From sequence record PZ386966.1: DNA of 64,000 nt. One strand, written 5' to 3'. The DNA is from a phage. Of this stretch, positions 26,592 through 61,905 are shown piece after piece; the first letter of the stretch is position 1; each line of letters starts with the position of its first letter. Both the position numbers and the translations under genes were made by a program. Below the pieces are notes generated by a model. The model did no database searches and was not told the origin of the DNA. It saw only the letters and a list, made by a program, of their open reading frames with translations.

Positions 26592-26975
26592 TCAAATACC
26601 TGTGCAACTTCTGTTTTCTAAGAAATACTCAACACCATACATAGCTTTTTGCATCAAATCTTCTTTAAACTGGATACGGTGGTTGAGCATAGCCTGTACA
26701 TCAATATCATCACGGTGTTTCTCTTTAATATTTGCAGATTGCAGGAAATACTCTGCAAGAACGTGATACTGATAGTCAGTTACCTTATCAGTCATCTCTG
26801 TCAAAGATTCTTCAGAGATTGGTTTAAGTAGCTCACCATTAGCTAGAGCAACACCTTTTACAATCTGGCAAGTGTCTTCTGGAACACCTGATAAGTCCAC
26901 ATTTGGGAGTTCTGTTGCATTGACTGGTAAATTCATTGCCATAACCATTGCAGCAGCTAATAAAATCTTTTTCAT
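26592..26975 (-). CDS. secreted/periplasmic protein
   Basis: N-terminal signal peptide 'MKKILLAAAMVMAMNLPVNA'. Confidence 0.45.
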   Translation of the reverse strand: MKKILLAAAMVMAMNLPVNATELPNVDLSGVPEDTCQIVKGVALANGELLKPISEESLTEMTDKVTDYQYHVLAEYFLQSANIKEKHRDDIDVQAMLNHRIQFKEDLMQKAMYGVEYFLENRSCTGI

Positions 26976-28700: not shown

Positions 28701-29002
28701 TTTCTCTTACCACCAATCTCTACGTCAACCACTTGAACATCACCAGCAACATCAAACTTATGAATGATGCTTTCCACAGTGTAAGTCCAACCATCAATGC
28801 GAACTAACTCACCTTCTCGTGGGACGATTGGATTACGTTGAGCTACAGTTGTAGTGGAGTGAACAACATCATAACAATAGATATAGTTTACTAATACTTC
28901 CATCGTGAAAACCTCACTCAATAACCGTGGTATGTGATTGACCATTTTTGCCATAGCTATAAGATGTTGTTGTTTGAGAGTTTGGACATCTGACAACAAC
29001 AA
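28697..29002 (-). CDS. hypothetical protein
   Basis: 101 aa ORF; N-terminus overlaps lipoprotein ORF, so the true start may be an internal Met. Confidence 0.3.
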   Translation of the reverse strand: MLLSDVQTLKQQHLIAMAKMVNHIPRLLSEVFTMEVLVNYIYCYDVVHSTTTVAQRNPIVPREGELVRIDGWTYTVESIIHKFDVAGDVQVVDVEIGGKRK

Positions 29003-29171
29003 TATCCCTGCTTATAGCGTCACCATTGAGTTTGTAGATTTTGCAGTCTTGCATCTCTGGAGGTAGGCTGTAAGAAGCATCTTTGTTTTCATAAGAAGGG
29101 TTGCAGCCAGCCAGAAAAATTACTCCAAGTGCAACCATTACTTTCACATGGCTCTTAATCTTATTGTTCAC
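28914..29171 (-). CDS. lipoprotein
   Basis: Signal peptide with lipobox 'FLAGC' ('MVALGVIFLAGCNPS'). Confidence 0.45.
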   Translation of the reverse strand: MNNKIKSHVKVMVALGVIFLAGCNPSYENKDASYSLPPEMQDCKIYKLNGDAISRDIVVVRCPNSQTTTSYSYGKNGQSHTTVIE

Positions 29172-29303
29172 GATAGTCTACCTCTCTGTATGTTTTTAAA
29201 TAGTGAGTGATGAGTTCTGGTAATTCACTACGTTTAACGTTTGAACGAAGAAGTGTCCAGTCAAAACCTTTACCAACCCTTCCCCAGAGACTGTACAGTT
29301 TCT

Positions 29304-29537
29304 TCATATCAACTCCAGAATATTAATACGTTCGCCCTTAAGAACTCCAGTACGGTCTCTTGCAATCTTGCCGTCAACAATAAGGATATGTGCAGCCCTT
29401 AAAGAGTCACCATTAAAACCTTTTACGAACTTGCTAGGCATCACTACAATGGACATCTCCTGAATCAACTCTGGAGTATAGCAATTATCGTGAAGTTGCT
29501 GAATAACGTCTGCAAGTGTCATTTTTGATGTCTCCAA
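29304..29537 (-). CDS. hypothetical protein
   Basis: 77 aa ORF in leftward operon. Confidence 0.3.
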   Translation of the reverse strand: METSKMTLADVIQQLHDNCYTPELIQEMSIVVMPSKFVKGFNGDSLRAAHILIVDGKIARDRTGVLKGERINILELI

Positions 29538-29789: not shown

Positions 29790-30349
29790 TCAGTGTACCT
29801 CAAGCCAATTCTTACCAACTTTACCAGTACCAGTTACAAGCGTTTCCTCCTTAAGTCCTAAGTTTCTTGATGCCTGACCATACATCCAGTCAATCACTGC
29901 TTTAACATCTTGTGTCATCTCTTCTGGGCACTCCCAACTATTCTCATCGTGGTATGCTAGAAGCAATCTAGCACCAATGGCTGGTTTTCGACCATTCAGC
30001 TTTGTAAGACCCTCTTCACAAGTTCTTCTACAAGCGAGGTTGATAGCTTCATTCTGAACCTGACTTTCCGAACCCATGAGCAAGTAATTTAAAAGTTTGT
30101 GCGGAGATTTACACCACAACCATGCACCTGCTACCTTTACAAAACCACCCTTAGATATTGCAGCAGTCTTACCAAACACCTCTTCAAGAGCCTTCTTAGT
30201 GGCTTTGAAGTCTGCTTCCAAATTATCTATCAACTTTTTAATCTTAGGAAGGCGTACAAAGTAAGTTTGCTTAGTTAAAGCACCTTCTTCGGTTGTTGAT
30301 GCTTTAATCGTCTTGGCAAACTTCTCATCACCTGCCCCAAACAATACAT
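29790..30349 (-). CDS. DNA polymerase family A, C-terminal exon (exon 2)
   Basis: Track ORF begins at a TTG, not ATG; frame opens right after an in-frame TGA; N-terminus 'LFGAGDEKFAKT' completes Pol A motif B (T7 'YGAGDEK'); 'LLLAYHDENSWECPEE' is motif C (HDE). Confidence 0.6.
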
Positions 30350-31154
30350 CTGGTCAATACACTCGCAAGGTGTACCAGTTCTCTTATGAACTTCTCCGCA
30401 TTTCTACGGAGTGTCGGACTATATCACGTAGTAGTAATACTACCGTTGCACTTGGGAATGGTCATTAGCTTACCAACCTACTCTACTCAGTTCATACATT
30501 AAGTATGCTTTTCGATAGTCTCTGAACGTTTCTCTGTTAGGAATCTCTATAATCATGTTATTTACTCAGGTAGTCAATTGCCCTTTGCATATTATCAACG
30601 CTATCTGCAAGTAACCCTAAAGCCCTATTGCAATTGTGGCACAACATACCTCTTACTTTTCCGGTTTTGTGGTCATGGTCAACGACAAGTTTAGCTTTAT
30701 GCCGTGAACTATTCATGATAAAACCTTCACCGCCACAAATTTGACATTTGTAATCACAGTTGCGAAGTAGGTTTTCAACCTCTTCTCTTTCTAAACCATA
30801 TGTTCTCAGGTAGTAATTCTTAACTCTACCTTTCTCTCCGCAATGTGAAGAACAATAAACTTGCCTTGCTGTTCTAGGCATGAACACCTTCTCACAGCTA
30901 GGACATTTCTTAGTAAGAACCCTATGTTCTGCTCTTCTGTCAAATTTTAATACGCAACTTCTGCACCGTTTTTGATTGTATTGGTATGGTTTAAACTCTG
31001 CACCACACTCAGTACACAATCTTTCTTTGTAACCTGCCATTGTCTCTCTCCTTTGCTTTAGGAGTCCTAACAGAGACTTCGCTGCTGATTACCATATCTT
31101 TACAGACTTAGGCTTCCAGCAATTCACAACGTTTTACATGCGCCACTGACGCAT
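30350..31154 (-). mobile_element. group I intron (IA-like) interrupting the DNA polymerase gene, with HEG in P6 region
   Basis: Minus-strand conserved elements in canonical order: P-like 'aattgctggaagcc' (31111-31124), Q-like 'aatcagcagc' (31081-31090), R 'gttcagagacta' (30516-30527), S 'gatatagtcc' (30416-30425). Proposed 5' splice after a U and 3' splice after a G restore an in-frame motif B. Exact boundaries inferred. Confidence 0.6.
30558..31040 (-). CDS. intron-encoded endonuclease VII-like (HNH-type) homing endonuclease
   Basis: 'VVDHDHKTGKVRGMLCHNCNRALG' matches the T4 endo VII catalytic motif; N-terminal CxxC zinc ribbons; lies between the two polymerase exons. Confidence 0.6.
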   Translation of the reverse strand: MAGYKERLCTECGAEFKPYQYNQKRCRSCVLKFDRRAEHRVLTKKCPSCEKVFMPRTARQVYCSSHCGEKGRVKNYYLRTYGLEREEVENLLRNCDYKCQICGGEGFIMNSSRHKAKLVVDHDHKTGKVRGMLCHNCNRALGLLADSVDNMQRAIDYLSK

Positions 31155-33324
31155 AAATGCCATTTTTGGCTTTCTTACGACCTTTGCTAATTTCTTGAAG
31201 AAGATTTGTATCCTGAGTGGCTCGACAGGTCAAGATGTCTTCCTCTTTATTAAGGCTGAAGTAAATACTATTTAAAGTATGCGCATCAGTTCCTGAGTAC
31301 ACCACGTACAAGTCATTTTCCGAATCATAATGCAAATACTTGTCAATCTCTGGGTTTAGATACTGGTCAAAATGTTTGCAATAGTATCTGCCATCATCTT
31401 GTTTGACAAACTCAACCTCTTCTTTACCCTCTGTTACTGCTTTAGTGAACTCTTTATCACCCATAAAGTTACACAGCAGTACAAGTTGCGCGCTATTCAT
31501 ATCTGCTGAAACAATATTAGTTCCCTCTTCACAAGTCCACACCTCCCTCATAGGTGCTCCATAGACAGCAGCACCAGACGGTACGTTTACAATACCATAT
31601 TGTGTCATACGTCCAGTTGAAGTACCAAACACCATTGCACCAGCACTAAGGCGACCATCAGGACGAATCTGGTTCAACCATCCTTTTTCATCATCCTTTG
31701 AGTTCTCAATAGTTCTGCGTCGGTGCATCAAAGTGTAGTACTTAGCAATCTTCTGTCCAAGCTCACCTTCAATCGTATCATAAGATGATTCAGTAAGTTT
31801 TGGTGAAGTACGAATTAAGCAAGGTTCAAGTAAGTCTGTGTACTTCTTAACAGACCAGTTATGCTCAATGTACTGGACACCTTCATGTTCAACATAGCTC
31901 AAGCCACAACGCTCAACCATCTCATCCCATTTAGGATGCTTGGTAATCATCTTTTTGTTGTCTTTGAAACGACAAACCTTAACAGGACGACCATCAGAGT
32001 CTTTCTTATAGTTCCAGTCATCAGGAATCCAACCAACTGATTTCAAGTAGTCCTTCACAACAGCCACCTGAGTCATTCGAGAAACTTCAAACTCAATTGG
32101 TGTATATGGTGCATCAATCAAACCTGTGTAGCGACTTGACTCAAGTCCAAAGTGGTTAACAACATGACTGTTATAGTACTTCACAGTTTTAACTGTTTTT
32201 ACTGGCTTCCAGTCTTTGCATTTCTTACCAATCTTTGCATTCAACTCGTTGCAAATTGCACGAGCATCCTTCATTGCTACAAAACCTTCCTTGTACTCTT
32301 CGCCAGTTACAGTGTTGGTTGGTGTATAGCAATTCCGCTTTTCAATGTTAAAAATCTTTGTAGTTGGCTTACCAAATGGCTTGATTTCATATGTCTGCAT
32401 CTCACCGTTACGTACCTGCTGACGATACTTTGTCTTAGGGTACTTGGTAATTCTTTTCAGTCCATCTGCATGACCAAACGCTTCAACATACTCATTCCAA
32501 GCTTTTGCAAACTCTTCTCCAGTGACTTTACCTTTGGTCTTAATAGTTGGTGGAAGGTGTGGTTCAACTTCTGAAGCAAGCTCATTAGTCAACTTGTCAA
32601 GTTCCTTTACATGGAACTCCATAAGCTCTTTATCAGCTTTCCAACCATTGATAGCCTGTTGACTCATCCAGAAAGATGTCTCTTTAGCTCGCATATAGGT
32701 TTCATAAGTGTCTATGCCACACTTCTTTAACTTGAGATATTCATTATCCAGTGCGCGTTTAGTTTTGGCGTTAATACGGATATCTTCTACAACACGAGTG
32801 AAGATTTCTGCATTCCACACACCCCAATGTTCAATCTCTGGTTTACGGACACCAACACGAGCACCCCATGCTGCCAAGCCATGAGCACCTTTATAGCCTT
32901 TTGGAGTTGGTCTATCCATCCACTGAACACGAGACTGGATAAGAGAGTCCTGAAAGAAATTACTCCACGGCTTACATTTTGGATTATCGAAGTTCCACAA
33001 ATCAGGTGCAATATGATTGAAAACCCACCAGTCATACCCCAGACCATTATGGATACAAAGCCGTTTTGCCTTTAACGCAAACTCAATACCTTCACGTAAA
33101 CCACCCTTAATGTACTTGGTATACTTGTGACCGAGGATAGGCTCATCTGTAAAGACCCATACAGGTGGCTCCTCATCGTCAGATTTATAGTCTGCGAAAG
33201 CCATGACGTGGACTTTAGTGAACTCAAGGAGTAAACCATCAGTTTCTGTATCACCAACTAAGTGTAAGTTTTTAAAATCTACGTTTTCCATTTGTACTCC
33301 CTCTAATTCGTTAACCCCATACAT
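31155..33324 (-). CDS. DNA polymerase family A, N-terminal exon (exon 1; uninterrupted ORF runs to 31108)
   Basis: Exo I-like 'DTETDGL', motif A-like 'VSADMNSAQLVLL', start of motif B 'RKKAKNGIY'; ORF then continues into intron sequence and stops. Confidence 0.65.
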
Positions 33325-61394: not shown

Positions 61395-61742
61395 ATGACA
61401 TTTAAAGAGTTCTGTCAAGCTACTTTCATAATTGTTTTCTTAGTTGGGGCAGGTGTCTGGGGGGGATACTCTTACAGAGACTACCAAGTTGCTGAAACTG
61501 AGCTAAACAATCAAAAGCTCATAAGTGTTGCTAAAGATGCTTATCAGGAAGGTTTAGTCACACTCAGCACCAATTACAAAAATGATTTGAAAGATGTGCT
61601 TGCTAAGAATAAGCATACAAAAGAGGTACTAACATATGAAAAAACTAAGCCAGAGTTTTATAATGTTTGTGTTACTGATAACTATGTCAGGGTGTTCAAC
61701 GAACAAAGTGAGCAGTACATTCAAAAACTCCCAAGTAAGTGA
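61395..61742 (+). CDS. i-spanin-like protein (Rz-like)
   Basis: N-terminal TM helix 'FIIVFLVGAGVWGG' followed by coiled-coil-prone periplasmic region. Confidence 0.4.
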   Translation: MTFKEFCQATFIIVFLVGAGVWGGYSYRDYQVAETELNNQKLISVAKDAYQEGLVTLSTNYKNDLKDVLAKNKHTKEVLTYEKTKPEFYNVCVTDNYVRVFNEQSEQYIQKLPSK

Positions 61743-61905
61743 GAGTGATAAGTACACTCAAGAGGAATCACGGTATATCATCAAAGGCAACACAGGCAGT
61801 GATGTAGCAGCAGCCCTTGAGTTCTATCGTGACGGCTTTTACCAGTGCACAATCAAAGCTAACAACCTTATTGACATGATTTTATTAGGGAATAAGCAGC
61901 AATGA
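61636..61905 (+). CDS. o-spanin-like lipoprotein (Rz1-like), overlapping upstream gene
   Basis: Lipobox 'LITMSGC'; begins inside the previous ORF in another frame and extends beyond it; longer and less Pro-rich than typical Rz1. Confidence 0.35.
   Translation: MKKLSQSFIMFVLLITMSGCSTNKVSSTFKNSQVSESDKYTQEESRYIIKGNTGSDVAAALEFYRDGFYQCTIKANNLIDMILLGNKQQ

Follow-up and report, generated by a model that had tools for sequence, protein, structure and literature searches.

A DUF4884 lipoprotein in an exchangeable slot of a Felix O1-like phage genome and its possible action on the host envelope

The DNA analyzed here is a stretch of 64,000 nucleotides (nt) from phage sequence record PZ386966.1, called the window throughout, and the subject of this report is a small gene on its minus strand that encodes a lipoprotein precursor of the DUF4884 family. 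The 4 kb around this gene showed 95% identity to Salmonella phage Si3 and matched 260 records, essentially all of them from Felixounavirus; the window is that of a Felixounavirus (Felix O1-like phage). The orthologues of the gene are Si3 gp077 and Felix O1 ORF91 (NP_944949.1), both annotated as 'hypothetical protein', and the mature protein encoded in the window is identical to that of Felix O1 ORF91. The existence of the gene is thus already on record, under the labels hypothetical protein and DUF. It sits between the genes for DNA ligase and DNA polymerase in a long minus-strand block that also contains small open reading frames (ORFs) and genes for a transcriptional regulator, DHFR and thymidylate synthase; packing is tight, and the gene shares its orientation with those for polymerase, ligase, thymidylate synthase and DHFR. 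The original prediction had placed an ORF of 85 amino acids (aa) at 28914-29171; this ORF is real, its exact coordinates match, and the strand, which had been left unstated, is the minus strand. The features of the locus are the following.

28914..29171, minus strand: lipoprotein precursor gene, 85 aa, GTG start, TGA stop; orthologue of Felix O1 ORF91 / Si3 gp077; DUF4884 (PF16225), phrog_902
29181..29184, minus strand: GAGG, a Shine-Dalgarno-like motif read from the sequence, with a 9-nt spacer to the GTG start
29145..29147, minus strand: alternative in-frame GTG start giving a 77-aa precursor, MKVMVALGVIFLAGC, that matches the start region of the MWKA.. variants of other Felixounaviruses
29106..29171, minus strand: predicted signal peptide, residues 1-22, with K4, K6 and K10 in the n-region and the h-region VMVALGVIFL (10 residues)
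29103..29114, minus strand: lipobox L20-A21-G22-C23, Cys23 being the predicted lipidation and cleavage site; the +2 residue is Asn
28917..29105, minus strand: mature protein, 63 aa, with a variable tether of ~10 residues and then a predicted all-beta domain of ~50 residues (AlphaFold2 (AF2) model, family alignment)
29043..29045, minus strand: invariant Cys43, predicted to form a disulfide with Cys62 where the first beta-hairpin has its base; flanks model strands 22-26 and 35-39
28986..28988, minus strand: invariant Cys62, followed by invariant Pro63 (family alignments)
28959..28997, minus strand: most conserved family motif, VVRCPNSQTTTSY, consensus VVRCPNSxTxTxY..GK (alignments A2, A3 and A4)
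29161..29307, minus strand: upstream 48-aa ORF (Si3 gp076), overlapping the lipoprotein start by 11 nt, no transmembrane segment
28697..28903, minus strand: downstream 68-aa ORF, its ATG 10 nt past the lipoprotein stop, no transmembrane segment; conserved flank of a variable slot

The lipoprotein ORF begins with GTG at 29171-29169 and ends with its stop codon at 28916-28914, and the product is MNNKIKSHVKVMVALGVIFLAGC followed by NPSYENKDASYSLPPEMQDCKIYKLNGDAISRDIVVVRCPNSQTTTSYSYGKNGQSHTTVIE, the mature part beginning NPSY.... Gene packing around it is operon-like, with the 11-nt overlap upstream and a 10-nt gap downstream. Both GTG starts lead to an identical mature lipoprotein. Two N-terminal forms of the protein occur among the Felixounaviruses, GTG-MNNK(I/V)KS... 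with 85-86 aa and ATG-MWKA... with 78 aa, and a 1-nt indel shifts the start codon between them (window 29138-29171, minus strand; loci L013-L033). Three database entries (P0002, P0005 and P0008) show the gene fused to the upstream ORF, and a fourth (P0012) is frameshifted after residue 43.

A lipoprotein signal (FLAGC) and two further cysteines in the mature part had been predicted for this ORF, and both were borne out: a basic n-region is followed by a hydrophobic h-region and an L-A-G-C lipobox, and the mature part holds exactly two more cysteines, C43 and C62. Lipoprotein precursors were defined by a positive n-region, a hydrophobic h-region and the pattern [LVI][ASTVI][GAS]C with the cysteine around position 15-25, and the ORF at 28914..29171 shows all of these. 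A six-frame scan of the whole 64-kb window for the same signal returned, besides this ORF, only a 36-aa junk ORF and an outer spanin (o-spanin) candidate described below; because the scan yielded so few matches, the lipobox is not a chance pattern. Among the homologues, 216 of 246 carried a lipobox ahead of the conserved core under the strict pattern, and nearly all the others passed a relaxed one. It was through the signal peptide that other lipoproteins were matched, both in the PDB profile search and in full-length comparison. That the ORF encodes a small exported lipoprotein is well supported by these sequence features. Asn at position +2 is the outer-membrane sorting default in Enterobacterales.

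The mature domain was compared in family alignments of 10, 44 and 117 sequences (alignment A4 being that of 44 sequences, mature domains only). The lipid-bearing Cys, P37, C43 and C62-P63 were invariant across them, and the full set of invariant or nearly invariant positions comprises the lipid Cys, Y34, L36-P37, D42-C43, Y46, V59-V60, C62-P63, Y71 and K75, giving the family consensus Y.LP.(G/E)L.DCKIY ... VVRCPNSxTxTxY..GK. The window ORF bears the whole family signature, that is, the lipid Cys, the tether of ~10 residues, Y.LP..L.DC, VVRCPNSxTxTxY..GK and the two invariant cysteines. The AF2 model, with a predicted local distance difference test (pLDDT) score of 75.7, placed strands at residues 5-7, 22-26, 35-39, 44-51 and 54-61, and a C43-C62 disulfide is predicted. 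The lipobox and both cysteines are retained in homologues at 30-50% identity from many phage families. For the mature part of 22 Felixounavirus orthologues, the median pairwise ratio of nonsynonymous to synonymous substitution rates (dN/dS) was 0.06, and residues 59-69 showed no amino acid change at all. The mature protein is under strong purifying selection, unlike a fast-evolving arms-race surface. Some DUF4884 subsets (in A4; P0057, P0128, P0088 and others) have a second cysteine pair in the last hairpin turn (SCGKNC), and others have a C-terminal extension DG(V/K)xY(V/I)K or a helical tail ..L(T/N)KLT.E(D/E)RKALG..; the Felixounavirus form has none of these.

Family membership was assigned in two ways. 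Residues 9-83 matched the phrog_902 profile (function unknown) with E=4.5e-18, and a PF16225 (DUF4884) label, precomputed and listed at E<=1e-5, is carried by a 93%-identical protein and by every other homologue found in a large protein collection. A local Pfam-A scan gave no PF16225 match for the query, nor for homologues labelled PF16225; since labelled proteins were also missed, this negative is uninformative for DUF4884 and the Pfam assignment rests on the precomputed labels. NCBIfam and Pfam scans of the query returned nothing useful. A published annotation table lists an 86-aa phage protein as 'DUF4884 domain-containing protein' (PMC12210894). A fold search of BFVD retrieved family members only, under names such as 'Lipoprotein' and 'Phage protein'.

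The family is very widespread and extends over many phage lineages that are unrelated to one another. By tblastn it is present in 588 phage records, and an exhaustive HMMER search with the mature part only gave 263 clusters at 50% identity. The matched homologues are nearly all of 70-130 aa, with the match beginning directly after the signal peptide. Two long proteins among the weak matches (P0202 and P0213) were rejected as LGFP-repeat or biased-composition artefacts. The host genera of the carriers are Escherichia, Salmonella, Klebsiella, Enterobacter, Vibrio, Aeromonas and Acinetobacter, and a Yersinia phage also has the gene. The carriers comprise Felixounavirus, Vequintavirinae (4MG, F5M1E), Justusliebigvirus (FKP3), the jumbo Asteriusvirus BF17, the T4-like (Straboviridae) Aeromonas phages Ahp1, Aeh1 and phiAS5, Acinetobacter Saclayvirus and ME3, and 114-kb Vibrio phages together with Vibrio phage JSF10. 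All the named carriers are large, apparently virulent phages of Gammaproteobacteria, and a 418-kb metagenomic contig with a DUF4884 member resembles a jumbo phage. We did not find it stated before that DUF4884 is a distinct, constrained class of phage periplasmic lipoproteins, unrelated to Llp, Cor and Rtp45, or that it occupies an exchangeable accessory slot.

This slot was surveyed with the ligase gene as anchor in 29 Felixounavirus contigs of IMG/VR. The lipoprotein gene was present at 21 of the 29 loci and absent from the other eight (~28%), in which both flanks were syntenic (L037, L039, L040, L046, L047, L050, L051 and L063; the slot corresponds to window 28904-29171). Two of the eight showed clean deletions, four had an unrelated 84-aa ORF (phrog_9065, with no signal peptide, cytoplasmic) and two (L050 and L051) had a 70-aa ORF with a match of 24.9 bits (E=3e-5) to the Pfam Tad2-like family (Thoeris anti-defence 2-like), just under the cutoff of 25. 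None of the eight contigs came up in an independent scan for the lipoprotein. Among GenBank phages, ligase DNA was found in 297 records versus 199 for lipoprotein DNA. Since the slot is empty or replaced in natural relatives, the gene is dispensable for the basic life cycle, and the slot itself collects small accessory genes. Nine lineages that carry the family had no neighbour gene in common within 3 kb, which argues that the gene travels, and presumably acts, alone. As for its timing, early or middle expression is a reasonable inference from the position of the gene; a promoter and terminator scan of the region gave counts equal to those of shuffled sequence, with no enrichment of promoter-like sites.

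The membrane anchor, in turn, varied within the family. At position +2 after the lipid Cys, the 216 homologues had D in 50, S in 37, E in 35, N in 27 and T in 21, and 'CDA', the commonest single form, was seen in phages that infect E. coli, Klebsiella and Enterobacter. In these three hosts Asp at +2 is an inner-membrane retention signal according to the established Lol sorting rule. Four homologues have cleavable signals of the signal-peptidase-I type and no Cys at the lipid position. Because about one quarter of the homologues have Asp+2 and a few have no lipid Cys, outer-membrane anchoring is not conserved; judging from these signals, the periplasmic location is conserved in the family and the anchoring membrane is variable. 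If the domain had just one target, and that target lay on the periplasmic side of an outer-membrane protein, a variable anchor with a tether of only ~10 residues would be difficult to explain; we infer that a soluble, peptidoglycan-associated or envelope-spanning target would fit better.

A gene that is dispensable, strongly constrained and common to phages with unrelated receptors points to a conflict or fitness function directed at a conserved host target. The reading we prefer, with a probability of about 0.3, is that the DUF4884 lipoprotein binds a conserved component of the host envelope and so may provide post-adsorption exclusion or resistance to lysis from without. The precursor would be exported by Sec. 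Its canonical lipobox suggests that a lipid would then be attached to Cys23 and that signal peptidase II would remove the signal peptide. A beta-sheet domain of ~50 residues, closed by the putative C43-C62 disulfide, would then stand in the periplasm on its tether of ~10 residues, where it would most likely bind a part of the envelope that Gammaproteobacteria have conserved, and not the receptor of the phage itself. Binding would alter the envelope of the infected cell to the advantage of the phage, and after adsorption later-arriving phages might be excluded or lysis from without resisted. Such an activity would be Spackle-like in function. T4 Spackle (gp61.3), from a virulent myovirus, is a small periplasmic protein made early that causes post-adsorption exclusion by inhibiting the lysozyme (gp5) of the incoming tail. 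It is the functional analogy we favour, with no structural relation implied: Spackle is helical and soluble and has a signal-peptidase-I signal, whereas the window lipoprotein is predicted to be all-beta and lipidated and showed no similarity to it in PDB searches. A conserved machine as the target has a precedent in Rtp45, which binds the periplasmic face of LptDE, a conserved and essential outer-membrane machine (PMC12685063), and this makes such a target plausible.

Several points weigh against this proposal. The exclusion phenotype is argued by analogy with other early periplasmic phage proteins, and a role in superinfection exclusion is a possibility. Early timing is itself read from position, with promoter-like sites at the rate of shuffled sequence. 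Confidence in the AF2 model is moderate. The conserved motif could be the structural core of the domain and not a binding surface, in which case different members could bind different targets. PDB profile and fold searches revealed no structural or sequence analogue of known function, and because of this the target of the lipoprotein is a guess. Literature searches found no functional or experimental study of any DUF4884 family member.

Takeover of the host envelope with no exclusion effect is nearly as likely as the exclusion that we favour. The lipoprotein would in that case inhibit or re-tune a conserved periplasmic enzyme or machine, for example a peptidoglycan hydrolase, a protease, a nuclease or components of Lpt, Bam, Lol or Tol-Pal, and the cell would stay whole and productive until programmed lysis. 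The evidence for a periplasmic binder serves this alternative equally: the domain is conserved across hosts, the gene stands alone and purifying selection is strong. The predicted anchor, which may be the inner membrane, the outer membrane or none, fits a soluble or peptidoglycan-level target better. However, PDB fold searches showed no similarity to known inhibitors of lysozymes, proteases or nucleases, and the lack of the gene in ~28% of close relatives implies that any effect of this kind is not needed for laboratory growth.

A third possibility, less probable than these two, is counter-defence, where the lipoprotein would neutralise an envelope-located defence of the host or of a prophage, such as a membrane-anchored abortive-infection sensor or a prophage exclusion protein. 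Variable accessory slots often collect conflict genes, and the slot described above holds the Tad2-like ORF in two relatives and an unrelated small ORF or nothing in others. Yet sharing a slot is weak evidence, and the Tad2-like match is just below the Pfam cutoff. Defences are, moreover, patchy among hosts, whereas the high conservation of the domain, in phages from those of Vibrio to those of Acinetobacter, is more in keeping with a target that is universal among hosts.

To our knowledge, the small phage lipoproteins of known mechanism are Llp, Cor and Rtp45, each of which masks the phage's own protein receptor. The original prediction had proposed a receptor-masking role of this kind for the window lipoprotein, which would bind the phage's receptor from the periplasm and block adsorption both to infected cells and to debris. 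This proposal is disfavoured by the comparisons that follow, and we regard it as improbable. Likenesses do exist, as the protein is small, probably located in the outer membrane and probably a disulfide-bonded, beta-rich lipoprotein like Llp and Rtp45 (PMC9586334; PMC12685063), and its gene is probably transcribed with the replication genes. In T5 Llp (PDB 7qjf, 8a60), likewise a small lipoprotein encoded by a phage, the mature part of ~60 residues is beta-rich; the protein is synthesized at an early stage of infection and acts at the outer membrane from its periplasmic side (PMC9586334). Rtp45 of phage Rtp (PDB 9RPS) is a lipoprotein of ~6 kDa with one disulfide and a beta-hairpin (PMC12685063). 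Cor (T1 ST30, N15, phi80, HK022), a lipoprotein of ~75 aa that confers superinfection exclusion, has a signal peptide that aligns with the one in the window.

These likenesses did not extend to the mature domain. The T1 Cor and Rtp45 sequences were taken from their genomes and T5 Llp was confirmed against PDB 8a60 and 7qjf; in hhalign comparisons with the mature-only profile (A4, 44 sequences) the probability was 0.5% for Cor, 0.05% for Rtp45 and 3.9% for Llp. A full-length hhalign match to Cor at 92.9% was discarded, as it comprised the signal peptide and the adjoining mature stretch at 8% identity and vanished in the mature-only comparison. The mature parts of Cor and of the window lipoprotein are unrelated, and Rtp45 has no sequence similarity to the latter. 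The PDB profile search, at E<=10, returned no match to Llp, though 8a60_B and 7qjf_A were in the database, and PDB fold searches gave no match to the Llp fold. The mature domain is thus without homology or fold match to Cor, Rtp45 or Llp.

Gene position and receptor type also speak against masking. The T1 cor gene comes directly after the tail-tip genes, rtp45 adjoins rtp44, which encodes the receptor-binding protein (RBP), and rtp43, and llp lies beside the RBP gene in T5. The window lipoprotein gene is not adjacent to any tail or RBP gene, unlike cor and rtp45. A place beside the tail-tip or RBP locus is presented as the general arrangement for cognate exclusion proteins in the BASEL paper, in which Felix O1 is reported to target lipopolysaccharide (LPS) and no protein receptor, and Bas63 to depend on the LPS core (PMC8594841). 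Llp and Rtp45, on the other hand, act on receptors that are proteins and bind them from the periplasmic face (PMC9586334; PMC12685063); the receptor is FhuA for Llp and the phage's own terminal receptor for Rtp45. With LPS as the receptor, a lipoprotein in the inner leaflet cannot mask it as Llp masks FhuA, and masking from the periplasmic face has no obvious counterpart for LPS. The same domain is found, besides, in phages with unrelated hosts and receptors, and in Asp+2 and Cys-less variants; its presence in phages of very different hosts and morphotypes suggests that they share one target, and that this is not the receptor particular to each phage.

A function in lysis, either as an o-spanin (Rz1-like) or as a lipoprotein lysis regulator, is very improbable. 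The size and lipobox of the window lipoprotein do resemble those of o-spanins, and in phage 4MG a neighbouring gene is annotated as 'Rz-like spanin', but that neighbour is non-homologous and is not conserved elsewhere. The window encodes a classical spanin pair of overlapping ORFs at another place (61395-61905, plus strand). This pair consists of a 115-aa i-spanin-like ORF with an N-terminal transmembrane segment (61395..61742) and, overlapping it, an o-spanin candidate, an 89-aa lipoprotein ORF (61636..61905; MKKLSQSFIMFVLLITMSGC followed by STNK...). Apart from this ORF and the DUF4884 gene, the window has no credible lipobox ORF. Neither neighbour of the DUF4884 gene has a transmembrane segment, and its mature part, with four Pro in 63 residues and a predicted five-strand beta domain, differs from a proline-rich, unstructured o-spanin. 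The absence of the gene from 8 of the 29 relatives argues further against a lysis role. That the ORF is a chance or mis-annotated one with no function, as its shortness, GTG start and purely hypothetical annotation might suggest, is refuted by its conservation (lipobox and both Cys kept in homologues at 30-50% identity, dN/dS of 0.06), which leaves this idea a negligible probability.

On a broader scale, it is conceivable, though doubtful, that DUF4884 represents an unrecognised and very widespread class of periplasmic effectors whose common target would be a single conserved part of the gammaproteobacterial envelope, such as an essential machine of the outer membrane or of peptidoglycan. If this were true, virulent phages of many families would be able to exclude competitors, or to control the envelope of the infected cell, independently of their receptors. 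The family is unrelated to Llp, Cor and Rtp45 and spreads far wider than they do, through myoviruses, jumbo phages and phages of T5 size that together infect at least seven host genera. A conserved envelope target would make this a generic phage strategy and could mark a vulnerable, possibly druggable, site in the envelope of Gram-negative bacteria. Felix O1-like phages serve in Salmonella diagnostics and biocontrol, and a gene for exclusion or envelope modification would affect the design of phage cocktails.

Two other features of the same region were observed. The family-A DNA polymerase is split in the window (29790-33324, minus strand) into a 738-aa ORF (31108..33324) and a 184-aa ORF (29790..30344), with a 160-aa endonuclease VII/HNH-like ORF (30558..31040) between the two parts; in Felix O1 the polymerase is a single gene of 2721 nt with an HNH gene just downstream. 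A second exported protein is encoded in the same strand block, 2 kb downstream of the lipoprotein gene, by a 127-aa ORF (26592-26975, minus strand) with a predicted signal of the signal-peptidase-I type (MKKILLAAAMVMAMNLPVNA followed by TELP). It corresponds to Si3 gp081 and Felix O1 ORF87, which are without annotation.

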